In this document: piece by piece, positions 5,963-64,000 of the stretch
Numbering within the stretch: position 1 is the stretch's first letter
Layout of the letters: each line of letters begins with the position of its first letter
Virus record (IMG/VR): IMGVR_UViG_3300046777_002950
Source: an uncultured virus (IMG/VR IMGVR_UViG_3300046777_002950)
Lineage: Duplodnaviria > Heunggongvirae > Uroviricota > Caudoviricetes
Direction: 5' to 3' (one strand)
DNA: 64,000 bases
Made by a program: the position numbers and the translations under genes
The notes under the pieces: model-generated
What the model saw: only the letters and a program-made list of their open reading frames with translations
Databases searched by the model: none
What the model was told of the DNA's origin: nothing

Positions 5963-7557
5963 TATACTTCTTGAACTCCTAAAGATACGGATATGGTGGC
6001 GTTTATTGAAAGCCCAGATGACAGTGTATCTGTGTAAGTTGCTGTGGTGTTTACTGAACTGGAACTCCAAACAACTTCATTGGTGAAATTAGGACTAATT
6101 ACTCTTGAAATACAAATCCAAATTTCATCAGCATTTTTGACAAATTGCTGTCCATAGTCTCCAGAAGGTACAGGATCGTTTGTATATTGTGTAGTCAAAA
6201 AAGATTTATTTAAGGCAAATAAATCTTTTAAATCAATGTTTATGGCTTTATTTGCTGCTAATAAATAAGAGCCTAAAATTATTCCTGATTGAATAGAAAA
6301 ATTTTGGCTAGAGGACTCAATTACGGAACTTACAGAACTAAAAGACAAAACAGGGTTTGTGGGCTTTGTAGGATTTTTTATTAAAGTAATTCTCCATATT
6401 CCTGTTGACGCGATCGCACTCAAGGATACTGGCAATATAGTATTAGAGTTTTGTTTAGAATTAACAAATTCTTTGGCTTTAATACCTAATATTGGTAGTG
6501 GTGATTTAATCAAAGATACAGATTGGTTCGCTGAAATAAAGTTAATATCTGTCGTTCCAATTGGTGAGCCAATAGATGTCACGGAAACACCGTACTTAGC
6601 TAATGTTTGAGTAGTTGTAGAAATTCCGTAATTAATATTTTCAAAGCAAATAGGCCAAGCTTCTTCATCAGTAATTCTATTTTGAGATGAATCAGAATCG
6701 CTGTATAAACTGTGAACCAGTACCCAGCGAGCAGAATTACCGACATTAACATAAGCCCAAAACCTTGCGCCGATACCAGCAGTTCCTATCTCAATTCCAA
6801 ACATTGCCACATTTGTGAAAGTTTGAGTATGGACGCTATTGCTTATACTGTCTAACTTATCGCCATTAAAAGCACTACGTGGTATTTCTATGTCCGTGGT
6901 TGTACCCCCCAATGTTTGACGATATCCCACTAAAAAATTATCAACCAATCCACTACCTTTCATTCTGAAGAAATAACCACTACTTACAGAATAAAGACCC
7001 CAAGTTTTTACAGAAGTAATTGCATCTGACAAAGATAATTCTACCGCCATAGTAAGCACAATTGGGTTATTAGCGGCGGTAAAATACCTATTACTAAAAA
7101 GAATTGTTTGTTGGATGATTCCTGGGTCTGCGTTCGGGTAATTCCTTAATTCAATTGCGCTTTGCTCGGGAATAAAACTTACTTGAGTATTTGATGAATA
7201 ACTAGCACGAGTGTTTACCCGGTAAGACCAGGTGACACTCACAGAACCAACCGTTTGGGCTGCTATGTCGCCCGTTTGATAAGTCCATTGATTTGGTTCA
7301 AAATCATATCTACTTACATTTCTAAACAAAACATAAGATTTGATTTGCCTGGTTAACGAGAAAGTATCAGTGATGGTTTCCGATGTAGGTTTCAAGATTG
7401 GTGAAATTTGTTCCGCATCCGATTGAGGCGGAAATACACCAATGTAGCTAATGAGACTATCAGAAGCTAATACAAAAGGATAGGATTCTGAAATTGGTTT
7501 TTTTCCGGCTTTGGATTGGGTATCTGCAATGTCTTCAGGTAGATGTATTTGTGTCAT
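5962..7557 (-). CDS. Virion structural or tail protein, paralog of 7554..9119
   Basis: Shares LFxNVxRYD, FWAYV...RWV.HS, LIKNP and LxDxFAxNxxFL with its neighbour; ATGA coupling. Confidence 0.7.
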   Translation of the reverse strand: MTQIHLPEDIADTQSKAGKKPISESYPFVLASDSLISYIGVFPPQSDAEQISPILKPTSETITDTFSLTRQIKSYVLFRNVSRYDFEPNQWTYQTGDIAAQTVGSVSVTWSYRVNTRASYSSNTQVSFIPEQSAIELRNYPNADPGIIQQTILFSNRYFTAANNPIVLTMAVELSLSDAITSVKTWGLYSVSSGYFFRMKGSGLVDNFLVGYRQTLGGTTTDIEIPRSAFNGDKLDSISNSVHTQTFTNVAMFGIEIGTAGIGARFWAYVNVGNSARWVLVHSLYSDSDSSQNRITDEEAWPICFENINYGISTTTQTLAKYGVSVTSIGSPIGTTDINFISANQSVSLIKSPLPILGIKAKEFVNSKQNSNTILPVSLSAIASTGIWRITLIKNPTKPTNPVLSFSSVSSVIESSSQNFSIQSGIILGSYLLAANKAINIDLKDLFALNKSFLTTQYTNDPVPSGDYGQQFVKNADEIWICISRVISPNFTNEVVWSSSSVNTTATYTDTLSSGLSINATISVSLGVQEV

Positions 7558-32800: not shown

Positions 32801-35800
32801 CAATATAGAATTAAAACCTGCGTCAAGACCTCTGAGAACAGCGGGATCTACTGGGTTTCCATCAGTACGAGCGATCGCAAAATGATGAGCAGCTAAAGTT
32901 TTTTGTTCCTGAAAATCGTCAACAAGTCTATTATAAGCAATGCTTTGAAGTGGGGTGAGATTTGCTGATTTGTTGTTTAAATAACCAAGTAAATCAGAGC
33001 TAGAAAGAACATTACTGGCAATACCTTCATGCTCAAAATCAGCGCCAAAGTTAACACCAATGTTAGATAATAAATCTTGAATCTTGAGTTTTTGGAAGTG
33101 TTCTTTGGTGGCTTTAATATGGGCTTGTGCCTGGTTTTCTAAATCTAAATCTTGCTGAAACACGGGGTTTGCTGGGAGAGGGGTATCCCAAGGATCAGCG
33201 ATCGCATTCCTAATATTTTCTGCCATGTTTCTAGCAGCATTAACAGCAGACTGGGATTGGTTGTCAATACCAGTTCCCATGCTACCAGCAATGTTTTCCC
33301 CAACATCAATGCCTTCACCTGATGGAGACGCTATTCTAAATACCTTTTTAATTGCACTGAGTATGCCTTTAGCAAACTTGGTGACTACTCCTAATACACC
33401 ACCATTTGCAGATATAAACCCTTGTGCAAAAGAAGAAATAAAGTTAATACTTATATCCTTTAGTCCACCACCTTTACTAAATGCAGATTTAGCGCTATTA
33501 AATACGTTACCCAAAATACTATCACCACTAAAATCTTTTTTTAGTGCTGACAACAGTTTAATTAATGAATGGGTAGGTTTATCAACTTCTTCTAAATATT
33601 TTTGAATTTCTGGCTGCTGGGCAAACTGCTTATAATCACCACTAGAATTATTGAAAGCACGAGCAGCTTTTGCTTGTAATTCTTTTAGTTTGTCTGGCGA
33701 AACTGTGTGAGATTGAATATACGGCTTCCCGCCTAACACAGAGTGAATATTGTCTCCCAGCGCAAGTTCCTTGGAGTCGGGATCGCTATTATTAAATGCA
33801 AATAAAATTTGATTTTTATCATTTAATTTACCATAACCTTGATAATCATTTAAATACGTTAACCCTAATGATTTAGCTATCTTAGGATTTTTTATTAACA
33901 TCTTATTAAATTTTGTAGCGAGTTTAAATGGTGTATTAAACTCTGTCATCAAGTTTGTGTCATGACTCCAGTCATAGACATCATTTATCTGTAGTCCCCC
34001 TTCTTTATTGCGGTTATAATTAAATCCCCCTAATGTATAGTGTAGATTTTTAAATCCTGGTATTTGACTAATATTATTCCCAACAGTGCCATCTCCTATC
34101 TCCCAATCATCAGGAATTGCTGTAATAGGCTTGTTTTCTTGTATAGACTTGTGCTTATAATTAAGTATTGACCTATACATCACAGCTATTTCCGCTTCTC
34201 TAGCTGTACGTCCTTGTATCTTATGTACATCAATATTACCTTGATAGTACGCGCCTAAATGTTTAACTGGTTCTGATATTTTCCCTAATATACCAGTATC
34301 ACCTAATGCAACTATAGCCGCGCCAATCATTGAGCCGAGTAAACTTCTTTTTTCTTTTTGCTTACTCTTGTCATAAACGTTCTTGGTAACATCTGCCATG
34401 TTACCAACTGAGTTTTTAATTACGTCATCATAATTGCTTATATGTTCAGAGTTAAACTGGTTTAATTCCTTAATACCAATGTCAACAGCCCCAGCTAACA
34501 TTGCACTAGCATCAGACACATCAATAACGCCTTTTTTAATGCCTACAGCCAACCCCGACGCTATCATTAAACCCAGTGCTATCATCACCTTCGATGGTGA
34601 ACTGATACCCATATTCTGCTTAATCCGGGATTGGATTGAATTACCAGCATTGTCCATAACTTTAGTAACACTTCCAATACTGTCCGCCATTCCTTTACCC
34701 AGTCCTTTCATAATATTTCCGCCTATGGACGTAAATGGCTTGGAAGAAGTATTATCAGAGGCTATAGCAGCACTACTAACATTTCTTGAGTCAGATTTAC
34801 TTATTGGTTGCTGACTAGGTAAATGACCCATATTCTTTTTAACTTGATTACTTACAGCATTAGTACTAGCACTCACGACTTTAGATGAAGCTGCAACGGT
34901 ATTAATAAGACTTCTATTAATGTTTTCAACTACGTTGCCACTCATGCGAGCAAAAGCATTTAAGGAAACGCTGTGTTTGTCCCCAAAGCTACCAATGGCA
35001 TCAGCTACTTGAGTGGGTGCGCCTAAATCAGTAATTGATTCCGCGATCGCCTGTTGATGAGTTGCACCTTTAGCAGCCTTTGTTACAATATTCCTATATA
35101 AATCTCTGGGAATAGTCAAAGCATCTATGCCATCAGCAAATACCGTCCCTGCGGTTTCAGTAACGGAATTAGCTGCTGTACCAAAACCAGTAGGAACTAC
35201 TTTTAATGCACTACCAATAGCTTTGATAATCTCAGGTTTAGTTAACTTTAAATCTTTTAATTTCTCCGTGAGAACCGCTTTATAAGCAGCCATGTAATCA
35301 AGAGACGGATCTTTTGCTAACCTGGTCTTAGTTTCCCCATGGGATTGGGCTACCGCTTTTCCTATTGCACCACTTCTTAAAAGTGCTGTCATACCAGACT
35401 GAGCCGCATCAAAAGCAGTAAATGAGCTTACACCGAAAGTAGCTGCACCTGCTTTACTTAAATTAATAAAATGATCAAATGCTTCTCTAGGCTTAGTAAG
35501 TGTCTTGTCAGCCCTTAGTTCAGCAACAAAATCTTTTCCAGACTCAAACGCAGACTGAAATAATGTTTGTTCTGGGTTAGCAGCGTGTCGTTCTCCTACT
35601 TTGTCAAGCATCTTTAGCCCAGAATCAGATGCAGCTAATCCTACACTCCCATAAGTGGCCGCAGTAGACATACCCGGTATAAGACCACCAACAGCCAATG
35701 CTGGCTCAAGAATTTCTTTAGCTGAACCCACAGCATCTTTAACGGTGCTTACAAGCTGTCTAGCCCCTACCGCAACTTTGCTGTTCCCTTTTTGCATCCC

Positions 35801-38344
35801 AAGAAACAGCCCAGAAGCTATCATCATCCCAATCTCAAACATCACCAAAGATGGAGACTGGATTTTCATCTTAGCTTCAACAGTTTCAATCAAGTCATCA
35901 AGCATCTGTCTAGCAGTATCAGACACGCCATCAGAGCCATGCTTAACACCTTTTGCTAATCCTGCGTCAATATCAATACCTAATTGTTGAGCCAAGGGTG
36001 CATAGTAAGCAAGCTGCTTATCAAAAATACTTTTTTCTTCTGTGTTTAGCTTACCTATTGCCTCATTAGCCCTTTTAGCATTAGCACTTACAGGAGATTT
36101 ACCTCCAGCATGAACTTTGCTAAGATCACTGTTAATTTTTTTATCAAAACCAGCATCTTCGGCTTGTTTAACAATATTATCTATATCTTTTATTGCAGAA
36201 TTACTAGTTAATATAAACTTTTTAAGTTTTTCTTTCGTGGCTTTAATTTCTGCTGGAGTTCCTGTTTTTTTAGTCTGGTCAACTTCAATTTTTAGCTTTT
36301 TATATTCTTCACTAAAATAATTGTTAATAGCTTTAAAAGAGGCTTTAACATTTTCTAAAGATATTTCTTTTTGTACTTTTATTTCGTCTGATTTTTTGGA
36401 CTTTCCTATTTCCAATGGCACTAATTCTTCACCATTCTCTCTAGCAGTTGCTTCAACATACTGCTTAGACAAATCAATATTTTTTAATGTATTAGTTTTT
36501 ATGGTTTCAAAGTGCTGTTTTAGTTGCTGTGGTACTTGACTAGCAGTAGTTTCAATAGGCACTAATTCAAGTTCTGGTTGTGGTTTTTTGGATTTTCTAG
36601 GAATATTTACAGGAATATTTAATGGCTGCTCTACAGGCGATTGTATTGCTTGTGTTACCACAGGAGCAGCTATTAAATTAATAGCAGATATAGAATTATT
36701 TAATGTATTGACTGCATTGTTCAATGACTGAGCGGCGTTTTCTAAACTAATTGCAGCCTGACTTAATCCTGAATCGGTAGAAACGGTACTTACATTGGCT
36801 ATGTACTCATTTAATCCTTTTGTGGCACTTTCTAAGTTGCTGGCAGCTTGTTTGAGTTCTGATTCAGGGGTGACAGGAATAGGCTTGGGTTTTGGAGTAT
36901 TTATAGTCCCAGTTTTCAAAAACTCACTAACAACACCATAAGTATTCGGTAGTATAGTTTTTGTTGTTGACTTTACAGATTGTTTTGCAAAACTAACTAT
37001 TTGAGAGCCAATTTTTCCGCCAAGAGACCCAGAGCCATCTCCCGTTCCCTCTAAAGAATTAAATACACCATTAACTGCATTTTGTATCTTTGCAGAGGAA
37101 TTAGCAAGAATATTCTGAGATCCTTTCCGCACTGCGCCGATAGTAGCACTTTTAACTCTTTGGGCTGTGTTTTCAAGTGATTGCTCAATTTCAGTCACAA
37201 ATTGATTGTTAATTTCAGTCAAGAACTGACTAGCAGCAGATGGTTTTACTGGTGTTTGTGTCTCTACATAATCATCAACCATCCCTCTTAAAATTGCCTC
37301 TACTCGCTTTTGTTCGTTTTTAGGATCTGATTGGGCTTTTTTACCTATACCAAAATAACGCAACAAGCCTTTGGCGGCAACCTGTCCAGTAGCTTCAAAA
37401 TCTACATCAACATCATTGGCGACTTTGGGTGGATTATATGCTTTTTTTCTACTTCTTTTGGTGCTACCAACAGCATTAGAATTGCTTGTACCTTGATACC
37501 ATGCAGCGCGGTGATCGTGCGCTACAACAAAAGCATCAATTCCATCTTTAAGAATAGCTTCTACTCGCTTCTGTTCATTTTTAGGATCTGATTGCGCTTT
37601 CTTACCTACACCAAAATAACGCAACATCATGTTACTAGTTATCCTAGTCATAGTTGGAATATCAACACCAACAGCATCCTCAATACCTCTATTAATCCCA
37701 TCAGTAAAACCTTTACCAAGTCCTCCAAATATCCCGTCCATAATAGCTCTACCTGGATTAACCACCATGTCTACTTTTTGGACTTTATTTGGCGATGAAG
37801 CTTCTTTAGCTGTTTGTTGTTGAGCCGTTACTGAAGCTTGTTCTGACATTTCTTCTTTAACAGCATTTTTAACAGCATCAGCTAAACTTTTTTCTAGTTG
37901 CTTACTTAAATCAGATTCAACAGTAATAGTAATAGTTCTACTAGAAAGCCCGCCTAATCTTTCTTCTAATTCATCAAGACTTTTGGTATCGGTATTAACT
38001 TTAATTGGATTGCTATCAAAATACTTATTAACTTGTTTAAGGTGCTGTACTTTTAAATTTAAGTGTTCATTCAAATCAGTCAAGCTACTATCATCAACAT
38101 TGACAACAATAGGATTATTATTAAAATACTTATTAACTTCTTTAAGATGTTGTACTTTTAAATTTAAGTGCTTATTTAAATTGACTAAGCTATCATCGTC
38201 CACTCCGACATTAAGATTAATATTTTCAAAGCTTTTTTCTACCGACACAGCCGCTTCATAAGCCTTCTTCTTAGCCCGTTCCAAAGTCTTTTCTAGCTCA
38301 GAAGAATCAGCAGATAACTCTACAATTAATTCGCCTAAATTCAT
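20813..38344 (-). CDS. Giant tape measure protein (5843 aa)
   Basis: N-terminal MNLGELIVELSAD, tape-measure core (QILAKGKLSMEELRQQLGE), SPS repeats and C-terminal FAxGG motifs; follows the tail chaperone genes; AGGAG RBS. Confidence 0.95.
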   Translation of the reverse strand: MNLGELIVELSADSSELEKTLERAKKKAYEAAVSVEKSFENINLNVGVDDDSLVNLNKHLNLKVQHLKEVNKYFNNNPIVVNVDDSSLTDLNEHLNLKVQHLKQVNKYFDSNPIKVNTDTKSLDELEERLGGLSSRTITITVESDLSKQLEKSLADAVKNAVKEEMSEQASVTAQQQTAKEASSPNKVQKVDMVVNPGRAIMDGIFGGLGKGFTDGINRGIEDAVGVDIPTMTRITSNMMLRYFGVGKKAQSDPKNEQKRVEAILKDGIDAFVVAHDHRAAWYQGTSNSNAVGSTKRSRKKAYNPPKVANDVDVDFEATGQVAAKGLLRYFGIGKKAQSDPKNEQKRVEAILRGMVDDYVETQTPVKPSAASQFLTEINNQFVTEIEQSLENTAQRVKSATIGAVRKGSQNILANSSAKIQNAVNGVFNSLEGTGDGSGSLGGKIGSQIVSFAKQSVKSTTKTILPNTYGVVSEFLKTGTINTPKPKPIPVTPESELKQAASNLESATKGLNEYIANVSTVSTDSGLSQAAISLENAAQSLNNAVNTLNNSISAINLIAAPVVTQAIQSPVEQPLNIPVNIPRKSKKPQPELELVPIETTASQVPQQLKQHFETIKTNTLKNIDLSKQYVEATARENGEELVPLEIGKSKKSDEIKVQKEISLENVKASFKAINNYFSEEYKKLKIEVDQTKKTGTPAEIKATKEKLKKFILTSNSAIKDIDNIVKQAEDAGFDKKINSDLSKVHAGGKSPVSANAKRANEAIGKLNTEEKSIFDKQLAYYAPLAQQLGIDIDAGLAKGVKHGSDGVSDTARQMLDDLIETVEAKMKIQSPSLVMFEIGMMIASGLFLGMQKGNSKVAVGARQLVSTVKDAVGSAKEILEPALAVGGLIPGMSTAATYGSVGLAASDSGLKMLDKVGERHAANPEQTLFQSAFESGKDFVAELRADKTLTKPREAFDHFINLSKAGAATFGVSSFTAFDAAQSGMTALLRSGAIGKAVAQSHGETKTRLAKDPSLDYMAAYKAVLTEKLKDLKLTKPEIIKAIGSALKVVPTGFGTAANSVTETAGTVFADGIDALTIPRDLYRNIVTKAAKGATHQQAIAESITDLGAPTQVADAIGSFGDKHSVSLNAFARMSGNVVENINRSLINTVAASSKVVSASTNAVSNQVKKNMGHLPSQQPISKSDSRNVSSAAIASDNTSSKPFTSIGGNIMKGLGKGMADSIGSVTKVMDNAGNSIQSRIKQNMGISSPSKVMIALGLMIASGLAVGIKKGVIDVSDASAMLAGAVDIGIKELNQFNSEHISNYDDVIKNSVGNMADVTKNVYDKSKQKEKRSLLGSMIGAAIVALGDTGILGKISEPVKHLGAYYQGNIDVHKIQGRTAREAEIAVMYRSILNYKHKSIQENKPITAIPDDWEIGDGTVGNNISQIPGFKNLHYTLGGFNYNRNKEGGLQINDVYDWSHDTNLMTEFNTPFKLATKFNKMLIKNPKIAKSLGLTYLNDYQGYGKLNDKNQILFAFNNSDPDSKELALGDNIHSVLGGKPYIQSHTVSPDKLKELQAKAARAFNNSSGDYKQFAQQPEIQKYLEEVDKPTHSLIKLLSALKKDFSGDSILGNVFNSAKSAFSKGGGLKDISINFISSFAQGFISANGGVLGVVTKFAKGILSAIKKVFRIASPSGEGIDVGENIAGSMGTGIDNQSQSAVNAARNMAENIRNAIADPWDTPLPANPVFQQDLDLENQAQAHIKATKEHFQKLKIQDLLSNIGVNFGADFEHEGIASNVLSSSDLLGYLNNKSANLTPLQSIAYNRLVDDFQEQKTLAAHHFAIARTDGNPVDPAVLRGLDAGFNSILLRIVEFSKRLGIKGQSIDKLLASNRSVVNTAAYQPPRFVAPKTPIPERQPGQTDQEYSQAVKRALAEDNNNYRKARNAYNRMILGVSNTPTPKITQLPALPPVPVYAREIIEPVTNVPPVQRTQATIPSIPDPWNDSVEQLVNTVKQATRTQFLLPPAKEHLNINSFVQTQSNLSRLAKEIVAQQPMTQLSKPQSPTIQRTSPIILPGNFAPNPNAQIISSQKFTPKPDAQILYSKNFAFNPNAQIVSSQKFTPKPDAQLILPVVQGLSPAIRSTHSLAQNSISALIAANKQIQATIAGNKVTVSSRFAPIPDPWTTPPLSTPPLPTQTVKQLSKQMTGQYGPIPDSWLTSSRSTQAFKQVGKLLIGQIPVTLSSTIPSFIPQPTGTATPKYVFPPQTLGTTVPTHTFPVNPTPTPPTPPTPPIPPTLLNQYLSLGTDLVTNIFNAVSTSIRQSTLSGYASLGQVMRNAVNAALFSLADTLKQPLHQALLSQTRSILPWFLKFIPRSFQLLPKLSFAIPFVGGMVLRLGNSIVKNLLENNILKKGGFLTNLLSSITKVDLSALSGTKTAGVAGFLEKIINPLPFLIGSQISPLSLGLLSASPLYDAFSGILGLDKSVKPNPKKQAPTIEKVLQDQTKINREKALLRDFKEVGVSTNTNAGVGQNLAAYPDIQRTKTEELLKRAVESGKAIPKLDELTRKALRERGVNRFARNQMDSAQLLTQRENILKNPLNATSKERDFLLYTADMKNSNAATLKKQEKRIISILKERGKSDQDIENIRKSGTDGLFDVGDDLIKNLPTITKQPTPIQTVQPRTSSASIASKELVENLGNTLLNSVLNSLDVPVIPKSVIQGMIGRKMGEKSATIADAINAFGVEKSKVEQLLTRNLESGNTKRLDGLTKQVLRERGVTESVRNAMTPEELAAAREKITKSPVDLTARERKLLKFMGDFESYVATMGNDVATRKRDAMTMSVLQERGMSRAQRKQIQQSQGGQGLSSFADNLRDNPRTGGFMGRFTEAYASNDQDAMKELVKQGLKRAGMSAKQINNIDPKLLDTATAGLMTTLSGLQAKFREKGFDMGKALAKGLKDSMVNLANAKDDLEYNAKKALGQANFGDSVGLIFRRMFRGTVATQGQFAEMYNQMGSGVKKLMFKNPKEGDEMFPNILQFVGSITTTLAPITTMIGAITPLLLPLAPIITGIGMAVNMVAPHVAKLIDGIQRVEVLQRRFKFLGGSKEGGKAEFNYAKDIATKLNVPSEVAANSYSQLAIAAKDSKMEGQGVKELFEGITSSLSALGINGQDASLVFTAYTQILAKGKLSMEELRQQLGEKFPPAMAMFAKAMGVTVPEMNELVASGGILSQDILPKVAKVLKEDYGSAAADQAGGLVVALNRLGNVGFEITTIFTDKIGGTLAFFVNTFANILGVLSGALKELIPLAQSFMIGFAATISIGLTIILSKFGPLRVAIGSLQNFLLATFSAITTNMMPMVVGVVSDVADGWLGAEKNLIENMFQGIANMFVTMFSAIDTAMRSMSDNKVSFSSLFGGLIQGAEQAGSIIDWLKGVFAGFFKILPSGIVEILAIVFMLEQGTGLMVMALWPAITKLWGGITGIFGATAKAFYGVMGSLKAVVELMMTSSAVAANATNNVAASGVKSMAIVQGALGFLSKALLHFGLAYAVLMFSKGDFSDPLRESINKSTADINKHLNQVRLNIGQTTEAFNKATKSVEKLGNTITNALPAKGVQLDIRSLWGGGDYKWDDAVRDTNAKYRPGGTGASAMDFLGPVALGLGGAGIGIAAKVAAASAANAASAAVAAKAFTLGTTVVQPAAVGIISRILAMLAPMLASPLAPWIAAIAGLIAAIGLATVALDAFAPKITEAQLEELPEEIKQIINAKKVGERLDSASLQVIKLYKDQELSNQRLKEFMASIGLDGTRPYSFVARPVVPMTQEQMTQEQKQKFESETPVQNITKRIEDKRASLQELEKLEPKETEKSKARSKEGYKKVQEEVTQLEKDKLLMQLSFMANLDNKPKMDALNNDIAKQKLVVDELRMREAQLKKEEMQYSFFGRPSFSGTSQKLKYAKDGQTYKEESQKLEKLKKEKAALQANIDASAQRRVNYDAIKEIDVDIEKASAEFVEASNQLAVNPNDKLRQKAGLAKERILQLQKRRQKLVDEFGDPTPSIKQALEVNKKEIEKTLSDLNLTPQQRKVTVKQLKERQETLQKSLAEAQKFSVAPIADTMYTQAIAALKDNEVKSNIDISKNKIVSNQAQAKLYSTTLTSQQIAPSLSDRQIADLTFQQKVLERSLKIKEDNLFKLQQAEAQSPTNLSQIQEEIVKLQQEIAKDREQVSQNTLEIVKTQREARQALIDQTKQVAEYYRTSLRESKAAAIEFDKATNNIKSQQFATKLKQALVGAGNNIFTNFIDSVIGLFQQLTEIENLRLDRQKQKLDYENNIQDILIKVTEMQRSLPGKIVPFDVGKIRDFDKELRTVNKSVSSINKEVNNVANGIGVSAVNSTINLNKALQDLLKTLQDINKNPLNPTAQPFNNSSSSNTPVGVSQRTKIPVTHEDEQIWREFVAPQSGIKRGTSSLPTSTPVANALKEVLVAGLMSDIPVQLYANKPKDKNNSFNLTPFTSPIANQLLTPNTFVSPIANRSLADLLNTRYGVQELFGYRNSKGLTLGKNAGVSRGSDVVASLGGTAFLEGNTLKIAHNAVDGKIVYVIYQGLNPKSITKNLGIKGKEKIEVSPGQLIGNPSGDKFKFGIAVGEPGKVTQNPYKNPLTFVRDIYRANQKQPMNPLQWLNRTFINRTDPVVNSLGLTQYTGVIKTSNQSINKPITTTSTPPVNQAIDWVKGKVKGFVRQNAPEPVKRVIRNTKNFVDNIPPIIPTYNQNTNSYNPGILDILIGNNSKPKPKPNNSTGSSRNNQSTGNKPTTTNQSKSGSGTNQGTDKKLTPTNQGNVPNLSSAFPQPSTGGLTLVSNTRNQIPPDLSSAFPSTPNGIKLTNASTSGNNNQGNNQDKLLVSPIPGKTLADILKFPYTDNEKKDGAYYGSARGVNRDTQLKAPISGKATLYIYKDKSNEDLTFVDITKNINGKQIIVRLTDLSLDSIKKNLGNLKHQSSFSLKAGQPIGTPQENRSVYMTASVQGKDLTIVDFIKNSQSYGFSPQGLTATPKTTPPNTGNLPQIPQTKQPVVIPPGTDPYTRSQLENQPLKPGNLQPGVESSGKLSLEAKKKQAAAEAAKNRAEIQSKLIEFQRTLANLLRDTNKSIRDESLQAAQDINNASEYIQGLLNPNASDKEKFATDFQKLKTEYQAKINEQENIIESAKVPLAELARVDELIAAAQREGIDASGLKTKRDEVYRVVKVREQTAIKLRKMYIDNKNKVFDTYVDRFKEEQLNKDAERRANLLGVNISQLKLQLEELKGIQAIDPLNPGLLKIPDLEANIAELELTQTTLQKIAALRREWQQSGGKNMSQEVFKKRAEDIMNTVTKQTGIIDRKRQTDKISAYVNRELGLIDKGAAEREPITKGLQLDNSLFAASNKNGLVNIINFENEALIKQKELMDSYRKNSLEAQLPQSKLTLDEQITKRLRNAMNLQKELEILKIETEYQKATGEIKNRQVTVDVQVKLSDAAKAIFESKSTIKKNLGLELAGERLDRQNAITAQENEYKRKQNETDQFILDNKLTDPQADELRRNNQIENDSKIRAIESQFSELAQIMKSFVSGFKNSFKEFLLSTEDTGTALLNLAKGIGKSVLDTLAEMASKRVTDLLFGWMGGTGLNPASELSFAAQQLTQAAYALQNVGRSSSIADVPDLDVGSLGGFAGFGDIASFSPTGMEFLDPSAFTAADFGSASLSGFAKGGMIDKDTLGKIQNFANGGIVGTMNKERAMTGRTPHLVVASEGERILNHKETAIWNKLQTGISGFADGGVVGGGSGDIASKIGGSTTTVNVPVSVSVNEGSDVDGARLSQTVQALVSDGIRREMRPGGSIRRGNPYGR

Positions 38345-57246: not shown

Positions 57247-57933
57247 CTAATTGACAAGCGTAGTTGTTTCGGGTAAACCAATACCAGGGTAAGCGACACG
57301 CCAAGCATCATGAGAGTATAAATTTTTCTCAACAAATCTTGGGCATGGCACTTTTTTAATTTCCAATCCCATTTTTACGGATACTGCTTTGAGTCTGTAC
57401 CACTTAAACCGAGTTTCTGAAATACCGTTAAATTTGGCTATGCGGACAATAGAGGAATAGTTGAACAATTCATCAACCGCTTCAGATAGGCACTCATTTT
57501 GTTGTTCTAAAAGGATGTTTTGTGCTTCTAGTCGTTCGTTCTCTTCTGCCAACTTTGCGGCTTCTAGCAACGCCTGAGAATAGGTTTTTGGTATTTGGGG
57601 TGCGATCGCTGTACTACCTGTTGACATCAGATTAAAAATATGTCCATCACACCACACAGCGAACTCTGGACTAATCCATCGAGCCAAGTTGATAGCTAAA
57701 CTAGGATGTCCCCAAGTTCCTTGCAAGCTATGATCTCCACCTTGCACTATTTCCGTTACCACCATTTGGTGTGAACGCTCCAAACAGTCAATATATTCTT
57801 TGGTTTTCTGCGCTTTCATGAAAACATCAAGTCGTTTCCCGTTGGCTTGACACATCTGGGTAAGGTTGATAAACCCGTTTTGACTGCGAGAAATTGTTTG
57901 TCCGTTATAATCAAAAACTGCTAGATTATTCAT
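57247..57933 (-). CDS. KilA-N domain antirepressor-like protein
   Basis: GFINLTQMCQANGK, QGTWGHPSLAINLARWISPEFAVW, PKTYSQAL. Confidence 0.92.
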   Translation of the reverse strand: MNNLAVFDYNGQTISRSQNGFINLTQMCQANGKRLDVFMKAQKTKEYIDCLERSHQMVVTEIVQGGDHSLQGTWGHPSLAINLARWISPEFAVWCDGHIFNLMSTGSTAIAPQIPKTYSQALLEAAKLAEENERLEAQNILLEQQNECLSEAVDELFNYSSIVRIAKFNGISETRFKWYRLKAVSVKMGLEIKKVPCPRFVEKNLYSHDAWRVAYPGIGLPETTTLVN

Positions 57934-58077
57934 GTGACCTCGGTATTAGGTTACTTCCCCTGCGGACTTGGTGTTATCAGCACCATCCGGCGAGGGGATT
58001 ACATAGTAATTATAACACATTTTATAGGCACTCAGGACACTTGCAGTTCTTTTGAGGCAGTTGTTTAAATCAATTTT

Positions 58078-58782
58078 TCATTTAACAGCGACTAATCCCA
58101 TAAAATTAAACCATCTCCAAAAACAATCAACAAACTTAAAACCACAATTACATAACAATTCTTCATTCCATTTAGCTGTTACAGGAACTAAAACTCCCTC
58201 TAGGCTTAATCTTTTTCTCTCTATCTCGTAAATAGAATAACCGTTTTTATGTTTTAGGTTATAGTAATTTTCTGTCATCAAACTATCAAGATTTGCGCTA
58301 TTGCCAATGACTTTTTCAACCAAAATAATTGCACCGCCTGGGGACAAGGAATCATAGCATCTTTGTAAAACTTGCAGCCGATATTCAATAGGAATAAACT
58401 GTAAGGTTAAGACGCTTAAAATCACGTTACAGTTTTGTATATCTACCCAATCTTTCCGCAAATCAATATTATATAATTCAATGTTTTTCTGATCTTTGAA
58501 CCTTTTCTGACTTGCTATTATCATAGGTTCGCTGCACTCAATTCCGTGATAATAACAATCCTTCCCACAAATAGCTGCAATTCTATCGATTTGATCACCA
58601 CGGCTACAACCTAAATCTAGTAGATGTCCTCCTGTTTTTAAGTAACTACAGGCAATATCAGTAACAGCTTTTCTCATTACTTCGTACTGCGGAATTGATC
58701 TAGCAAGCATATCATCAAAGATGTCTGTTACTGACTCATCAAATTCCCATTTATCTTTTGACGGTACATGGTAATTGTTCAT
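58078..58782 (-). CDS. cmoA: Carboxy-S-adenosylmethionine synthase (CmoA-like)
   Basis: WEFDESV..FDDMLARSIPQY, DLGCSRG, TLQF, PGGAIILVEK, K..NGYS..EI..KR.SLE and FNF all match the CmoA family pattern. Confidence 0.88.
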   Translation of the reverse strand: MNNYHVPSKDKWEFDESVTDIFDDMLARSIPQYEVMRKAVTDIACSYLKTGGHLLDLGCSRGDQIDRIAAICGKDCYYHGIECSEPMIIASQKRFKDQKNIELYNIDLRKDWVDIQNCNVILSVLTLQFIPIEYRLQVLQRCYDSLSPGGAIILVEKVIGNSANLDSLMTENYYNLKHKNGYSIYEIERKRLSLEGVLVPVTAKWNEELLCNCGFKFVDCFWRWFNFMGLVAVK

Positions 58783-59819
58783 AATTTCTCAAGTATTTCT
58801 AGCTGAATTGTTTTAGCAATATGCGACATCATAACAGGCGGTACAGCCCGTCCTAATCGTTCCCATTGTTGATCGTAACTACCAGATAAAATAAAATCAT
58901 CAGGAAATGCACAAAGTCTTTTAACTTCTACTATTGATAAAAGGCGACATTTTAATGGATGCATTACCTGACCGTTTGATCGGCATTGACTCTGACCAAT
59001 TGTATTTACAGGTTTGGATGGATTGGGACGTTTTAAAGAAAAACGTTCTGGATGCGCTCCTCCTAGTGGTGTTTCGTGCCATTGCTTTCCTATTTTATAT
59101 TTAGTAATGTCTGTTTCCGGTTCTAATACTATTTCTAAATTTTTGATCGCATCATTAAACGAGTATTGGTAACTTAGCGGTTTAGGATGTACAGGTTCTA
59201 ACTTTAAATCATTTCTCACACCCACAAAAATAGTCCGTTGTCTCATTTGTGGAACGCCCAACCATTGAGCATCTAAAACTTTACATTTGACATTATACCC
59301 ACAGCCTTTCAGTGCTTTTAATATTTCTAGAAAGTAACCTTTTGCAGTTCCTTTTATTAGTCCAGATACATTTTCCGCCACAAATACTTTGGGCTGAGTT
59401 CCTTTAATCAATCTTGCGTATTCAAAAAATAAGTCATCTACCCTTTGCTTTGTGTCTGAATACTTCTTAACTTTTGCCCACCCTGCTTCACGTTTACCAG
59501 CAGTCGAAAAAGCAGCGCATGGTGGCGAACCATCAAATATATCAATTTCACCAATTCTTAAACCAGTTGCTTTTAAAATATCTTCTGGTTGTACTAATCG
59601 AATATCTCTAGTATCCAGAATGGAATTAGTATGATTAGCTCTATAGCACTGTTGAGCAGCAGGTATAAACTCATTAGCCCATAAAACTCGATAACCTGCC
59701 ATGCGATAACCCAAGCAAGATCCTCCTGTTCCGCTAAAAGTAGAGACTACATTGAATCCGTTCCAAGGAATGTTTTTAATATCTTCCATAGAAGGGACTT
59801 TATACGCTGGTTTATTCAT
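58779..59819 (-). CDS. C5-cytosine DNA methyltransferase-fold enzyme, predicted carboxymethyltransferase
   Basis: FSGTGG, GSPPCAAFS, ENV, PQMRQR, RLCAFPDDF; motif X reads LGRAVPP instead of xGNAVPP. Confidence 0.9.
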   Translation of the reverse strand: MNKPAYKVPSMEDIKNIPWNGFNVVSTFSGTGGSCLGYRMAGYRVLWANEFIPAAQQCYRANHTNSILDTRDIRLVQPEDILKATGLRIGEIDIFDGSPPCAAFSTAGKREAGWAKVKKYSDTKQRVDDLFFEYARLIKGTQPKVFVAENVSGLIKGTAKGYFLEILKALKGCGYNVKCKVLDAQWLGVPQMRQRTIFVGVRNDLKLEPVHPKPLSYQYSFNDAIKNLEIVLEPETDITKYKIGKQWHETPLGGAHPERFSLKRPNPSKPVNTIGQSQCRSNGQVMHPLKCRLLSIVEVKRLCAFPDDFILSGSYDQQWERLGRAVPPVMMSHIAKTIQLEILEKL

Positions 59820-60352
59820 TTTCCACCGCTCCACTTATATCCACATTTAGGGCATTCGTGATCTGTTTCTATGCTTTCATCATATTCTTTAAAGTCACCC
59901 GATGTCCGCTTACTATCATCATTATTATTATCTTCCTGTTCATCATCCAAAAAACTTAATTCCAATTCCCCAAAGCCCGTTAAACCCAGATCAAAATCAC
60001 TATCCTGTAGAAACTCAAAATCCAGTTTCAACATATCAGGATCAAATCCAGTATTCATGGTCAGCTTGTTGTGTGCTAAACGATATGCCACTTTTTGAGC
60101 ATCTGACAGCCCGGTAACTTGAATTACGGGAATTACAGCATCACCCCGTTTCTTGGCTGCTAAAAGCCGACCGTGACCTTCTAATATTTCACCATTCTCA
60201 TCTACTGCCACCGGGTCAAGGAATGTAAATTCTTCTATGGAATTAGCTATCTGTTCAATGTGGGAATCAGGGTGCAACTTAGCATTGTTCTCATAAGGAC
60301 TTAGACGCTCAATGTCCCATTCTTCTATCTGACTACGCTTGATTTTGCTCAT
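59816..60352 (-). CDS. ParB/Srx N-terminal domain protein with a C-terminal zinc ribbon
   Basis: PYENNAKLH, SIEEF.F..P, GHGRL.AA, YRLAHNKL, CPKCG. Confidence 0.9.
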   Translation of the reverse strand: MSKIKRSQIEEWDIERLSPYENNAKLHPDSHIEQIANSIEEFTFLDPVAVDENGEILEGHGRLLAAKKRGDAVIPVIQVTGLSDAQKVAYRLAHNKLTMNTGFDPDMLKLDFEFLQDSDFDLGLTGFGELELSFLDDEQEDNNNDDSKRTSGDFKEYDESIETDHECPKCGYKWSGGK

Positions 60353-61635: not shown

Positions 61636-61749
61636 ATGATAAAGCTGTCAGTAATGCTGACAGCACCCTTAATATACCGAGCTTGACATTATTATTATAG
61701 CATAAAACCTTTGTTTTAATTGCTTTTAATGTCATATATTTGGTTTAAA

Positions 61750-61830
61750 TGCTATAATATTTGAACCTAGTCGCGCGGTGATGCTGGCAACATCAAGCCA
61801 CCACTAGGAGTAGGTCCAACATACCCACGT
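61750..61830 (+). promoter_or_regulatory. Extended -10 promoter plus a structured 5' leader of the Cas12 gene
   Basis: TGCTATAAT (61750-58), then a CCTAGT...TGATG-CTGGCAA-CATCA...ACTAGG stem-loop. Confidence 0.6.
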
Positions 61831-61842
61831 ATCTATTTTACC

Positions 61843-63606
61843 ATGAAAACTTTTGAATTTAAGCTTGACCTTACGGTTGCACAAGTACAAACGATTAATC
61901 AATGGCTAGACAAACTCAAGTGGGTTTGGAATACAGGGCTGTCGCTCAAACTAGCAGGAAGACAGAAATATTATAGAGAGAAAGAAATAGGCGATCGCGT
62001 CATTCCCAGTGGTGTGGTTTTGCAGTGGAAATGGCGAAAAGTTGTTACTGAAGATAAAAAAGGTAAGTCTACTGAGAAGTGGGAGAAAGTCCGCTTAGTC
62101 GGTACAGGTGTCATCAGACCTAAAAGCGGTCATCCTTACTGTGAAATTAGACAACACTTAAATATTGAAAACCCTGATAAATATGGACAATGTGAATTTT
62201 ATAGGAGTGACAATATTCCCGACTTTATGGCAGATGTTCCCACTAAATTTAAGGCAGGGGTAATTGATTCTTTAAAGAAATCATGGAAAGCTTACGTTAC
62301 TCCAAAACACCCCGGTAGAAAGCCAAAATTCAAAGGGAGAAACGATAAAATCAAGTCGCTTGTTAATCTCAATGCTGGGGGTTTATCCAAAGAACTAAAA
62401 CCGGAAAAAATACCCGGTTCAAATAATGGTTATGTCCAGTTCCCCAAGCTTGGTAAAATTAAAGTTAAAGGATTATTTGATAGATATGACTGGCAAGAAT
62501 GGGGTCCTGCCAGAATAGTTAAAGAACCATCAGGTTACTATCTTCATGTATGCGTTGATATCCCCAATGACCCATTACCAAAATCTGATAAAGCAGTAGG
62601 AATTGATCCGGGTTTACTATCAATTATTACCACAGATCAGGGTAAAGAAGTTGAGCCGCCTAAGCTATTTAGGAAACAACAAACTAAGCTAAGACGATTA
62701 CAGCGTAAAGCATCTAGGCAGAAGAAAGGAGGATGTAATCAGAAGAAAACTTATCAAAAAATAGCCCTACACCATGAGAAGATCCGCCGCAGCCGCAACG
62801 CATTTAACCATAAGTTATCTACTAAAGTTGTGCGTGAGTATTCTGGGATTGTGATGGAAGACTTAAAGATACAAAACCTGAACCGTAAGCCCAAAGCCAA
62901 GAAACGTGAGGACGGCAATGGCTATGAACAAAACGGTGCAAAACGTAAAGCCGGGTTAAACAAAAGTTTTGCCGATTCAGCACTGGGTGATTTAATCAGT
63001 AAGATTGAAACAAAGTGCAAAGATACTGATAGAGAGTTTGTAAAAGTTGCGGCACACTACACTACGGTTGACTGTTCAAAATGTGGTGCTAAAATAAAGA
63101 AAGCATTGAGCCAAAGAACTCACCGCTGTACAGAATGTGGTCACACTGAAGGACGTGATTCTAATGCAGCCAAGAATATTTTACTCAAAGGCAAAAAGCA
63201 ATTACAAACAGTGTACCGCGCTTGGGCGTGGGAACATGGGGAAACCCGAAAGCCTGGCTCTGATTCCAATACGGAATGTCACCAGGAAGGTGTGCAAACA
63301 CCACCGGAGGATGGATATTCCTCCCAATTAAACCCCGAAAGGGGAACTCAGCGCGGAAGGGGGGATATAAAAACCTCTAAAACCGTGAAAACAACCCCAA
63401 AGGTAGACACCGTAAGCAACCTGAACCTTGACAATTTACCAAACACCCGCGCACCTTACCCAGTAAGCATTTCAGCTAATTCAGCGAAAACTCAAAAGCC
63501 TGGAACAAAGAAAAATAAGAGATCCGCGCAATCAGGGGATGAAACTTTTACACAGCTTACGATCTGGGATACGGCTGGTGAAACCGACCTTGGGGAACTG
63601 GGTTAA
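61843..63606 (+). CDS. TnpB-like compact type V CRISPR effector (Cas12f / V-U-like)
   Basis: RuvC I VGIDPG, RuvC II VMEDL, zinc finger CSKC...CTEC, RuvC III RDSNAAKNI; directly abuts a CRISPR array; the stop codon lies in repeat 1. Confidence 0.9.
   Translation: MKTFEFKLDLTVAQVQTINQWLDKLKWVWNTGLSLKLAGRQKYYREKEIGDRVIPSGVVLQWKWRKVVTEDKKGKSTEKWEKVRLVGTGVIRPKSGHPYCEIRQHLNIENPDKYGQCEFYRSDNIPDFMADVPTKFKAGVIDSLKKSWKAYVTPKHPGRKPKFKGRNDKIKSLVNLNAGGLSKELKPEKIPGSNNGYVQFPKLGKIKVKGLFDRYDWQEWGPARIVKEPSGYYLHVCVDIPNDPLPKSDKAVGIDPGLLSIITTDQGKEVEPPKLFRKQQTKLRRLQRKASRQKKGGCNQKKTYQKIALHHEKIRRSRNAFNHKLSTKVVREYSGIVMEDLKIQNLNRKPKAKKREDGNGYEQNGAKRKAGLNKSFADSALGDLISKIETKCKDTDREFVKVAAHYTTVDCSKCGAKIKKALSQRTHRCTECGHTEGRDSNAAKNILLKGKKQLQTVYRAWAWEHGETRKPGSDSNTECHQEGVQTPPEDGYSSQLNPERGTQRGRGDIKTSKTVKTTPKVDTVSNLNLDNLPNTRAPYPVSISANSAKTQKPGTKKNKRSAQSGDETFTQLTIWDTAGETDLGELG
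63215..63350 (+). ncRNA. Putative tracrRNA/omegaRNA-like scaffold overlapping the effector 3' end
   Basis: Five consecutive hairpins, three with GNRA loops, plus CAATTAA(A)CCC complementary to the repeat's GGGTTAATTG. Confidence 0.6.
63351..63576 (+). promoter_or_regulatory. Putative CRISPR leader inside the effector ORF
   Basis: GCGCGG (63351) and CCGCGCA (63447, 63524) boxes directly before repeat 1; resembles Nostocales chromosomal leaders as I recall them. Confidence 0.55.
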
Positions 63607-64000
63607 TTGCAAGTTATCCCGATATTAACGCAAGTATGGTGAAACCGACGGTGAAACCGACCTTGGGGAACTGGGTTAATTGCAAGCAGAAATAAGATCA
63701 CCAACTTCATTCAGAAAATTGAGGTGAAACCGACCTTGGGGAACTGGGTTAATTGCAAGCGAGATACAGTTTATTTCTAAGATGAGAGGTATCTAGGTGA
63801 AACCGACCTTGGGGAACTGGGTTAATTGCAAGATTCAGATTGTCAAAACCAATATCGGCAACATTGGTGAAACCGACCTTGGGGAACTGGGTTAATTGCA
63901 AGACTTACTTTGATAAAAAAGGCACTGAAAAAAGAGGGTGAAACCGACCTTGGGGAACTGGGTTAATTGCAAGAGATTCATCAGGCTTCTTTGCAGCATT
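63577..64000 (+). CRISPR. CRISPR array, 37-bp repeat GGTGAAACCGACCTTGGGGAACTGGGTTAATTGCAAG, at least 6 repeats (truncated by the window end)
   Basis: Identical repeats at 63577, 63650, 63723, 63796, 63866 and 63937; spacers of 36, 36, 36, 33 and 34 nt plus a partial sixth. Confidence 0.98.

Follow-up and report, generated by a model that had tools for sequence, protein, structure and literature searches.

The window analysed here (64,000 nt of DNA from an uncultured tailed virus) carries at its end a phage-borne type V-U2 (C2c8) CRISPR-Cas cassette, and its carrier is a tailed cyanophage which infects bloom-forming cyanobacteria. We consider it likely that the end of the effector ORF has a dual role, as protein tail and as tracrRNA- or omega-RNA-like scaffold, and that the system is probably thioredoxin-dependent. 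V-U2 is one of the original "uncharacterised" groups of type V, and our literature search found no experiment on any V-U2 effector. A phage V-U2 locus was already published, that of Aphanizomenon phage vB_AphaS-CL131 with gp061 and an array of 10 spacers (Sulcius et al. 2018, PMC6293099), so the locus described here adds to a known type. New here are the scaffold RNA in the tail-coding DNA, the repeat-matched anti-repeats in relatives and the predicted thioredoxin link to Cas12p.

The effector ORF (61843..63606, + strand) encodes 587 aa. It matched the NCBIfam model NF038192 V_cas_c2c8 with 484.2 bits (cut-off 350) over model positions 1-456 of 457, and reached 165.6 bits with NF038281 IS200_TnpB, under the cut-off of 425; the profile comparison proposed in the initial annotation was thus passed for C2c8 and failed for IS200_TnpB. 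Pfam domains OrfB_IS605, Cas12f1-like TNB and HTH_OrfB_IS605 were identified, and 630 relatives were found at E <= 1e-20, many of them carrying the NCBI name C2c8. In the family alignment (n=48) the RuvC triad D255 (62605-62607), E339 (62857-62859) and D439 (63157-63159) was invariant, as were C411, C414 and C429 of the zinc finger (C411-C432, 63073-63138). The fourth Cys of this CxxC...CxxC (CCCC) finger, C432, was read from the translation of the window protein. The TnpB-like protein with intact D-E-D triad and zinc finger that had been noticed from the letters alone is therefore confirmed. The AlphaFold2 model (mean pLDDT 71.6) was confident over residues 1-462, which fits the earlier estimate of a core of about 460 aa, and residues 463-587 were below pLDDT 50.

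The CRISPR array (63577..64000, +) contains one 37-nt repeat in six identical copies, which start at 63577, 63650, 63723, 63796, 63866 and 63937, with five complete spacers of 36, 36, 36, 33 and 34 nt and a sixth cut at the window end, beyond which the array extends. Identical 37-bp repeats with unique spacers had been reported before, correctly. The direct joining of gene and array had even been understated, since the effector ORF ends at 63606 with its stop codon inside repeat 1 (63577-63613). The array leader (63412..63576, +) also codes for the conserved C-terminal motif of the protein; it is deleted in a sister variant (L004/L011) which has a degenerate two-repeat array. Sister contigs carried 2 to 28 repeats, with spacers that differed wherever comparable, and none of the 72 same-type spacers compared was common to the window array. 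The arrays of L012 and L013 had only three spacers in common, all at the trailer end. The gene-proximal end of the arrays is the variable one, and new spacers enter there. The phage group has about 110 distinct spacers in all.

The initial annotation had seen no cas1, cas2, cas4 or tnpA gene. This was borne out: Cas1, Cas2, Cas4 and Y1 transposase (TnpA) gave no match among 42 window ORFs searched against PHROGs, among 23 searched against Pfam, or among 12 ORFs within 10 kb downstream of the array of a sister contig, the scans covering ORFs of at least 80-90 aa other than the giant ORF 20813-38344. Because the phage has no adaptation genes, the integrase which would insert new spacers at the gene-proximal end must come from elsewhere.

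A transposon remnant, that is, an IS200/IS605-type TnpB with its omega-RNA and not a CRISPR system, has some features in common with this locus. The effector has TnpB-type domains and resembles IS200/IS605 TnpB (ISDra2, PDB 8h1j, E 7e-23) in its RuvC and zinc-finger core. The omega-RNA scaffold of TnpB overlaps the 3' end of the gene, as the scaffold described below does, and two chromosomal C2c8 loci (L024, L025) show one clear repeat-like unit and no array, which is a TnpB-like trait. Nevertheless this explanation is extremely unlikely, because the effector scores far under the IS200_TnpB cut-off, the ORFs scanned included no TnpA, and, unlike in IS200/IS605 elements, there is an array of six or more identical repeats whose unique spacers vary among sister phages.

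Tailed-phage genes identified in the window with PHROGs included a DnaB-like helicase, tail proteins, a portal, a major head protein, a protease and a large terminase. The V-U2 locus in cyanophage CL131, which the initial annotation had mentioned, is indeed published (PMC6293099), and its gene is homologous to the window effector gene, with 77.8% DNA identity over 51% of a 3-kb query, comprising the gene and about 90 nt upstream. Both loci have the array directly downstream on the same strand, no adaptation genes, a cyanophage carrier and the same RNA scaffold (covariance model R1, 127.9 bits in CL131). They differ in the repeat, which is 37 nt in the window and 36 nt in CL131 with only the 3' end ..TTG(G/C)AAG in common, and in the end of the gene, since a TGA stop in CL131 takes the place of CGA in the window and the CL131 tail frame is interrupted. 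The anti-repeat is contiguous in CL131, whereas that proposed for the window is split by two hairpins. The carrier phages differ elsewhere as well: CL131 is absent from the eight listed best matches to the window terminase, the best of those listed being 45.5% identical. For cyanophage ecology, the window locus adds one further phage lineage with a V-U2 cassette.

The C-terminal tail (codons 463-587, 63229..63603, +) is predicted to be disordered (pLDDT <50) and ends in the conserved motif RSAQ...TQLTIWD. Of the tail residues, L572 and W575 show conservation of 90% or more (n=48). The frame is open past the stop site of CL131 in 13 of 14 phage relatives, and the seven listed chromosomal matches (562-612 aa) all have it open. 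Judged by this conservation, the tail is translated.

The same DNA also appears to encode, on the gene strand, an RNA of conserved structure, which had been missed in the initial annotation of the tail of about 125 aa. The scaffold (63207..63326, +; RNAalifold and covariance model R1) consists of five stems, S1 63211-63237, S2 63238-63247, S3 63253-63286, S4 63289-63302 and S5 63306-63324. Among phage relatives RNAalifold gave 34 pairs, of which 12 were compensatory, a count reached by none of 500 shuffles, and slid controls gave at most 4. Third-codon identity was 0.97 in the scaffold block against 0.58-0.64 in the core, so that synonymous sites are nearly frozen, and the fold energy of the stretch was -74 kcal/mol (z -3.75). 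Model R1, built from phage loci only, found the scaffold in the tail and on the gene strand in three of six chromosomal C2c8 loci (E 2e-7, 1e-5 and 7.5e-5) and gave no match in the other three (L026, L027, L028). With chromosomal loci added, 21 of 34 pairs were compensatory, in an alignment that was fitted to R1. A search of the scaffold in Rfam matched no family and returned one sub-threshold chance match.

Stems of this kind are possible on either strand and the 12 compensatory pairs hold on both, as they would if a tracrRNA were transcribed from the opposite strand. The paired cells fall from 98.7% on the plus strand to 91.4% on the minus strand, because S1 contains two invariant G:U pairs that turn into C-A there. 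In addition, the anti-repeats of relatives complement the gene-strand reading of the repeat, and transcription of a tracrRNA from the other strand is highly improbable.

The layout is similar to that of Cas12n (V-U4, C2c9), in which the DNA coding for an unstructured C-terminal tail contains the tracrRNA (bioRxiv 10.64898/2026.03.27.714800, PMC11641405). Like the window system, Cas12n has a TnpB-near miniature effector and an array without adaptation genes, and the window scaffold within tail-coding DNA agrees with Cas12n in layout only. Cas12n is more distant from the effector in sequence (9j09, E 3.6e-17), and its tail is reported to be dispensable, whereas a motif conserved in the family closes the window tail.

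Immediately 3' of the scaffold, relatives carry anti-repeats matched to the repeat of their own lineage (dG -33 in L012, -27 in CL131 and -29 in L016). The cofold interaction energy was matched by 0 of 100 shuffled repeats in L012, 2 of 100 in CL131 and 1 of 100 in L020, and compensatory anti-repeat:repeat pairs were observed in L025 and L029. Going by homologous position to the anti-repeats of L012, CL131 and L016, which are contiguous, we propose a split anti-repeat in the window (63325..63411, +) made of pieces of 4-10 nt. Segment 1 (CAATTAA, 63325-63331) would pair with repeat positions 27-33, and three of its five pairs are compensatory. Segment 2 (63347-63351) would pair with positions 22-26, segment 3 (63395-63404) with 11-19 and segment 4 (63408-63411) with 1-4, hairpins lying at 63333-63344 and 63351-63387. 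Within the window-type group, a repeat change in L007 breaks a segment 3 pair and a change in L017 improves segment 2. The whole tracr:repeat model contains 4 compensatory pairs only, a number reached by 90 of 500 shuffles.

It may be asked, then, if the system needs crRNA only, with the protein alone binding the repeat and the RNA of the tail acting in cis, in mRNA stability or translation control, in pre-crRNA processing or as leader signal. The complementarity between tail and repeat in the window is not above chance, which would suit such a system: the cofold interaction was -2.3 kcal/mol, a value that 67 of 100 shuffled repeats attained, and 132 of 300 shuffles reached the 9 nt of the best contiguous complement. 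Two other measures were not informative, since a matrix of duplex energies between tails and repeats had a background too high for discrimination in the window group, and a gapped complementarity score with free long gaps was so permissive that even the obvious duplex of L012 was not significant. Two publications also point this way: the CL131 authors found no tracrRNA (PMC6293099), and a review table lists V-U2 as tracrRNA-independent, without data (PMC11641405). But relatives have, at the homologous position, long anti-repeats that fit the differing repeats of their own loci, and the nearest characterised relatives, Cas12p and Cas12n, are both described as tracrRNA-dependent. A system with crRNA only is therefore unlikely, and the effector probably requires a tracrRNA.

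A second site complementary to the repeat lies inside the gene. The stretch 62436..62454 (+, codons VQFPKLG) complements repeat positions 7-25 in 17 of 19 nt, whereas none of 300 shuffled repeats reached 17 (maximum 14), and it forms the strongest duplex in the locus (dG -34.3). If this is the functional partner of the repeat in the window lineage, pre-crRNA would pair with effector mRNA, either for autoregulation by duplex cleavage or as a relocated anti-repeat. One compensatory pair in L007 fits the idea (CCCC changed to CCCT in the gene, GGGG to AGGG in the repeat). Against it, L020 has the identical gene stretch with a non-matching repeat, the match is likewise absent in the CL131 group, no covariation was seen in either, repeat changes in L017 and L010 break pairs, and the site is about 770 nt away from the conserved scaffold. 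The sequence of the stretch is fixed by the protein, because it encodes the family-conserved FPKLG motif. We regard such a partner as quite unlikely.

With a tracrRNA-like scaffold as the preferred reading, the last ~390 nt of the ORF would serve twice. Translated, they would give the disordered tail with its conserved C-terminal motif QLxLWD; as RNA, they would fold into the five-stem scaffold followed by the anti-repeat segments, a tracrRNA/omega-RNA-like moiety which would pair with the repeat part of each crRNA (the 3' part of the repeat plus spacer). The core of about 460 aa with its intact RuvC would then cut matching DNA, to judge from Cas12p and TnpB, and host thioredoxin is predicted to dock on the Cys100 loop, as for Cas12p.

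Thioredoxin-dependent Cas12p ("Cas12 hacker", type V-P; Wang et al., bioRxiv 10.1101/2025.01.20.633832; PDB 9jfs, 9jg3; in Nat Microbiol 2026 per PMC13728456) is the best solved relative of the effector, in sequence (E 2.6e-30) and in fold (9jg3/9jfs, E 5e-22, TM 0.53-0.59), followed in fold by TnpB, LaTranC and Cas12f. According to the preprint, Cas12p is an active RNA-guided dsDNA nuclease with 5' GTN PAM, and has a thioredoxin-binding domain with a key cysteine, in which C127 and I129 contact the thioredoxin active site. Its tracrRNA forms a pseudoknot with the last 4 nt of the repeat (AAAC:UUUG). The window system matches Cas12p in being phage-borne, in protein size (500-700 aa), in the 37-nt repeat and in the disordered C-terminal domain. 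Cas12p needs a tracrRNA, and the window system probably does too. The repeat ends in CAAG in the window compared with AAAC in Cas12p, and the S1 loop has a CUUG (63221-63224) with which this CAAG could pair; these pairs carry no covariation signal because they are invariant. In the same preprint 11 of 12 described Cas12p members share >70% identity, whereas the fold alignment of the effector with Cas12p has only about 22%. From its sequence, the effector is thus a Cas12p homologue outside the tight >70%-identity group. A closer Cas12p relative, P0119 (E 2.7e-63 to 9jfs), fails the C2c8 model with 238 bits against 350, while the window effector passes it.

The effector carries a predicted Cas12p-type thioredoxin-binding loop, also missed in the initial annotation. 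The region (codons 55-108, 62005..62166, +) comprises a beta-hairpin and the loop G96-H-P-Y-C100-E-I102, and the predicted interface includes residues 34, 55-58, 90-91, 96-102 and 104-108. In the family C100 is conserved in 42 of 48 members and I102 in 32 of 48. Three prediction runs of the effector-thioredoxin complex gave ipSAE of 0.00, 0.79 and 0.79, with 0.00 for the best control; the ipSAE mark that we used is attained in 116 of 157 solved complexes and in 2 of 215 mismatched pairs. The runs agreed in at least 8% of contacts, with partner pLDDT of at least 83. The predicted complex places the conserved Cys100 at the active site of host thioredoxin, the Cys-x-Ile loop lying in parallel to C127/I129 known from the preprint. 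The pass may reflect memory of the model, since a similar Cas12p-TrxA complex is already solved. On these predictions, the effector probably needs host thioredoxin, docked on the Cys100 loop.

For the targets of the system, the window spacers gave no match in the window itself, searched again in agreement with the earlier statement of no full match there, or in any of the loci compared; automatic spacer cutting in the locus comparison was imprecise for some loci, and the matches listed there are repeat remnants. The window array had no match among GenBank phages at E <= 1, nor did the 28-repeat array of L017 at E <= 0.1. In the records of five related phages, among them CL131 and a complete relative of 100 kb, only array-to-array matches and short chance matches occurred. 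Nostocales genomes had been suggested as a source of protospacers and of a PAM. A search of 401 sampled genomes gave matches at chance level only (best E 0.002 per genome), and none of these genomes had a host array with similar repeat, from which an integrase might be borrowed, except for a phage-like scaffold of G001. Rival mobile elements are the default guess for the targets, and use against competing phages or the host, as assumed earlier, stays conjectural because no protospacer was found.

This result would also be expected from a non-cleaving, regulatory or merely decaying locus, and the CL131 authors proposed from the small size of V-U effectors that they are regulatory and non-cleaving (PMC6293099). 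The degenerate array with deleted leader in L004/L011 and the lost tail frame of the CL131 gene are in line with decay. But the catalytic triad is intact and invariant in all 48 family members, the arrays of close relatives hold wholly different spacers with up to 28 repeats, which speaks for ongoing use, and Cas12p cleaves DNA according to the preprint. We consider a non-cleaving or decaying locus very unlikely. With intact catalytic residues, and with Cas12p, active per that preprint, as the nearest solved relative, an active compact nuclease is the best reading.

The locus and its relatives suggest a testable guide-RNA design, with scaffold 63207-63326, then anti-repeat, then the 37-nt repeat, and name host thioredoxin as the likely missing cofactor (predicted). 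The need for a helper RNA or for thioredoxin could explain why small effectors seem inactive or "regulatory". That one gene 3' end may provide protein tail, helper RNA and array leader bears on how TnpB guide RNAs gave rise to CRISPR arrays.

Cyanobacterial thioredoxin is reduced by photosynthetic electron flow. A wider reading, which we find possible but rather doubtful, is that all V-U2 systems are thioredoxin-gated, combined with a triple role of the ~390 nt and repeat-mRNA feedback. In 42 of 48 sampled members the conserved Cys loop would dock on the thioredoxin active site, the ~390 nt would be translated tail with terminal motif, tracrRNA scaffold and array leader, and the repeat of the window lineage, complementary to the effector's own mRNA, would give built-in feedback on effector level. 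If it is true, thioredoxin gating of V-U2 would tie phage CRISPR interference to the light and redox state of the host.

Gene and array share the + strand and have no terminator-like site in between, which makes joint transcription probable. A promoter-like site 5' of the effector gene (ATGTCA-18-TATAAT with TG extension, 61729..61758, +; 10 of 12 matches in a consensus scan only) falls within the segment that is conserved between the window and CL131 (about 61756-63289 in the window). Assembled metatranscriptome contigs from the RNA libraries of four studies, in which DNA carry-over is possible, contain the gene's 3' half, the tail and repeat 1.

The effector ORF at 61843-63606 (+) encodes a protein of 587 aa. 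The initial annotation had described a TnpB-like protein with an intact D-E-D triad and zinc finger, and had called for profile searches against C2c8 and TnpB; the description is correct, and the searches assign the protein to C2c8, the type V-U2 effector. Pfam matches were OrfB_IS605, Cas12f1-like TNB and OrfB HTH, and the protein passed the NCBI curated C2c8 model (NF038192, 484.2 bits against a cut-off of 350) but failed the IS200 TnpB model (165.6 bits against 425). D255, E339, D439, C411, C414 and C429 were invariant across a family alignment of 48 members, in which identity extends down to 33%, and C432 completes the zinc finger in the window protein. AlphaFold2 was confident over residues 1-462, with pLDDT near 30 over residues 463-587 (the tail). 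The claimed direct junction of the gene with an array of identical 37-bp repeats was also confirmed, as the ORF stops inside repeat 1. The locus is a real V-U2 CRISPR-Cas cassette on a cyanophage, and it is probably active.

The window carries tailed-phage genes for a DnaB-like helicase, several tail proteins, portal, major head protein, protease and large terminase, and a PHROGs scan also found DNA methyltransferases and anti-repressors. Cas1, Cas2, Cas4 and TnpA families had no match in 42 window ORFs with PHROGs, in 23 window ORFs with Pfam, or in 12 ORFs downstream of a sister-contig array, so their reported absence holds within the ORFs scanned. A giant ORF at 20813-38344 (-) is a single frame of 5843 aa, flanked by tail genes on one side and head genes on the other. 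Directly upstream of the cassette, 57247-60352 (-) encodes a Bro/KilAC-type anti-repressor, a putative tRNA methyltransferase, a C5 DNA methyltransferase and a ParB-like nuclease-domain protein.

The sole GenBank phage match, at 77.8% identity across window about 61756-63289, was Aphanizomenon phage vB_AphaS-CL131, whose V-U2 locus, named in the initial annotation, is indeed published. This kind has been in print since 2018, and that paper gives 10 spacers, no tracrRNA found, an unresolved direction and a suggested regulatory role (PMC6293099). The V-U2 kind is already known and the window locus is a further member. Elsewhere in its genome the window phage shows no close kinship with CL131; among the matches listed for its terminase, the best was 45.5% identical, from unrelated viruses. 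This indicates that the cassette is common to different phage lineages. The CL131 cassette is likewise adjoined by an anti-repressor.

The tail-coding DNA contains a well supported scaffold RNA. The stretch 63205-63292 is nearly frozen among groups whose genes differ by about 30%, and third-codon-position identity is 0.97 there versus 0.58-0.64 in the core. RNAalifold on 12 loci gave five stems (S1-S5, 63207-63326, +) with 34 pairs, 12 of which keep pairing through two-sided changes; none of 500 column shuffles reached this number, and slid partners yielded at most 4. Paired cells made up 98.7% on the plus strand but 91.4% in the minus-strand mirror structure, because invariant G:U pairs turn into C-A; therefore the gene strand is the folding strand. 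Over 63205-63415 (211 nt) the folding energy is -74 kcal/mol (z -3.75), and an Rfam search gave no family match. When six chromosomal C2c8 loci were searched, a covariance model built from phage loci only (R1) found the scaffold in three, L025 (E 2e-7), L024 (1e-5) and L029 (7.5e-5), each time on the gene strand within the tail-coding DNA, and found nothing in L026, L027 and L028. When the three were added, 21 of 34 pairs were compensatory (0/500 shuffles reached this), in an alignment that was fitted to R1 and so favours structure. The predicted ORF-embedded scaffold RNA is common to phage and chromosomal V-U2 loci.

The same DNA also encodes protein. The annotated CL131 gene (gp061) stops at a TGA (7484-7486 of locus L001), where the window (63247) and all relatives have CGA; the TGA keeps stem S2 paired as G:U. 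The frame continues past this site towards the array in 13 of 14 phage relatives, one of these 13 ending at a contig edge and one being shortened by deletion, and in the seven listed chromosomal matches the frame stays open for 562-612 aa, where the model spans 457 positions. At its C-terminal end the tail carries the motif K/R-rich...RSAQ...QLxLWD, with L572 and W575 at least 90% conserved. Distant members vary at synonymous positions of this motif, so it is conserved as protein, and we conclude that the tail is translated. In CL131 the C-terminal motif sits in another frame (L001 7573-7745), so this phage has apparently lost the peptide, with the RNA elements and an array of 11 repeats retained.

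For members of the CL131-like group, each repeat finds its best partner directly 3' of S5 on the gene strand of its own locus. This anti-repeat covers repeat positions 1-33 in phage locus L012 (dG -33), and pairs at dG -27 in CL131 and -29 in L016; the three repeats differ from each other and the anti-repeats change to match. The observed interaction energy was reached by shuffled repeats in 0/100 cases for L012, 2/100 for CL131 and 1/100 for the Dolichospermum locus L020. In the chromosomal paralogues L025 and L029, CCCCTAAGCAA faces TTGCTTAGGG and TCTCTAAGCAAA faces TTTGCTTAGAG, and this pairing starts 21-29 nt past the scaffold. The homologous region of the window is broken by two hairpins. 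Its proposed pieces within 63325-63411 (+), seg1 (7 nt), seg2 (5 nt), seg3 (9/10 nt with a bulge) and seg4 (4 nt), would together pair repeat positions 1-4, 11-19 and 22-33, and seg1 has three compensatory pairs across repeat families. Taken alone, the tail:repeat pairing of the window was not above chance in shuffled-repeat tests, and small changes within the window-type group partly help and partly harm it. So the exact pairing is provisional, and a tracrRNA role of the scaffold is likely by homology. A Cas12p-like pseudoknot of CUUG (63221-63224) with the terminal CAAG of the repeat is possible; its pairs are invariant and so show no covariation. A sister phage variant (L004 9990-10130, L011 5560-5660) lacks 167 nt (window 63410-63576; joint 63409->63577), which brings seg3 almost directly onto the first repeat as an sgRNA-like hairpin. 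What remains is an ORF of 523 aa and two repeats separated by a 14-nt spacer, followed by a third, degenerate one. Contigs from the RNA libraries of two runs (X3, X4) show the same joined form.

The array starts at 63577 (+) and has six identical 37-nt repeats 70-73 nt apart, with five complete spacers of 36, 36, 36, 33 and 34 nt and a sixth interrupted by the window end. Sister contigs with effectors 94-98% identical have 2 to 28 repeats, and the five complete spacers share none with 72 spacers of A-type arrays (L007, L008, L009, L010, L017). L012 and L013 have three trailer-end spacers in common and differ at the gene-proximal ends, and in the L009 array four variant repeats precede a single repeat of older type, at the end away from the gene. 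These few comparisons would fit spacer acquisition adjoining the gene, with the tail-coding DNA as leader. No terminator-like site was found on the + strand between gene and array. About 110 nt before the scaffold, a promoter-like site TTGACT-16-TAAAAT (63068-63095, +; 10/12 consensus) could give tracr and array a transcript of their own, but it lies in the zinc finger, whose CxxC codons also constrain its sequence. The last 12 nt of spacer 1 (63614-63649) equal the first 12 nt of the repeat, leaving 24 unique nt; the partial repeat may be a product of aberrant integration or slippage.

In many C2c8 proteins, the 5' part of the first repeat codes for the residues past the conserved W (e.g. D-x-A-x-E-T/I...G), which is consistent with an origin of the repeat from the 3' end of its gene. 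Inside the gene, 62436-62454 (+; codons VQFPKLG) is complementary to 17 of the 19 nt at repeat positions 7-25, and none of 300 shuffled repeats exceeded 14. This sequence is fixed by a family-conserved protein motif. The L020 repeat fails to match although the gene stretch there is identical, and the CL131 group likewise lacks the complementarity, so this feature belongs to the window's repeat lineage. Possible readings are a relic of the origin of the repeat middle and a real repeat-mRNA pairing.

The closest characterised relative is Cas12p, 'Cas12 hacker' (sequence E 2.6e-30; fold E 5e-22, TM 0.53-0.59). Its preprint describes Cas12p as phage-borne, with 500-700 aa, a disordered C-terminal domain, a guide of 185-nt tracrRNA and 37-nt repeat, GTN PAM recognition and dsDNA cleavage, active only with host thioredoxin bound, by a domain that makes a transient C127 - TrxA C33 disulfide (bioRxiv 10.1101/2025.01.20.633832). 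The window system is likewise phage-borne, with a 37-nt repeat and a predicted-disordered C-terminus. We predicted a complex of window residues 1-462 (48-row alignment) with thioredoxin from the Dolichospermum genome bearing L020. The scores were 0.00, 0.79 and 0.79 (best control 0.00), with contact agreement of at least 8% and partner pLDDT of at least 83; the mark used is reached by 116/157 solved complexes and 2/215 mismatched pairs. In the predicted interface, C100 (loop GHPYCEI) faces the WCGPC site and cis-proline loop of thioredoxin, and the family conserves C100 in 42/48 and I102 in 32/48. Because a like complex is already solved, the pass is taken as likeness to Cas12p and no proof of binding; thioredoxin dependence of the V-U2 effector is a prediction of the model.

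A 691-aa relative in the protein collection (P0119) is much nearer to Cas12p (E 2.7e-63 to PDB 9jfs) and fails the C2c8 model (238 bits), yet it ends in a tail motif (..FTQLTIWDIGGEISFE) identical to that of the L020 V-U2 effector and as found in window-related phages. This makes Cas12p look like a REC-expanded sister of V-U2, and the shared motif suggests that Cas12p-type and C2c8-type effectors replace one another in front of a single kind of array. The closest parallel in layout is Cas12n (V-U4), for which a preprint reports a tracrRNA within an unstructured, dispensable tail (bioRxiv 10.64898/2026.03.27.714800).

The window locus adds the ORF-embedded scaffold RNA, the lineage-matched anti-repeats and the predicted thioredoxin dependence, none of which was found stated for V-U2 in the papers open to search. 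No spacer target was found in the window, as the initial annotation had said, nor in the fetched loci, GenBank phages, five related phage records or 401 genomes of Nostocales, a group that it had proposed for the search. Lake metatranscriptome assemblies from four studies contained the 3' half of the gene with the tail and first repeat; these contigs mean presence, not transcription.

IMG/VR has 14 effector-bearing loci, and one further locus is on an 84.6-kb scaffold of a Dolichospermum circinale assembly. At E <= 1e-20 the protein collection contains 630 relatives, and NCBI gives the name C2c8 to many of them, in Nostoc, Dolichospermum, Coleofasciculus, Chroococcus and others. The C2c8 model (E <= 1e-60) matched in 6 of 401 sampled cyanobacterial genomes. 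The chromosomal loci L024 (minus strand), L025 and L029, from two cyanobacterial genomes, have an apparent single repeat-like unit and one putative guide with no array, which resembles the layout of TnpB omega-RNA. L025 and L029 are two copies within one genome, about 6 kb apart.
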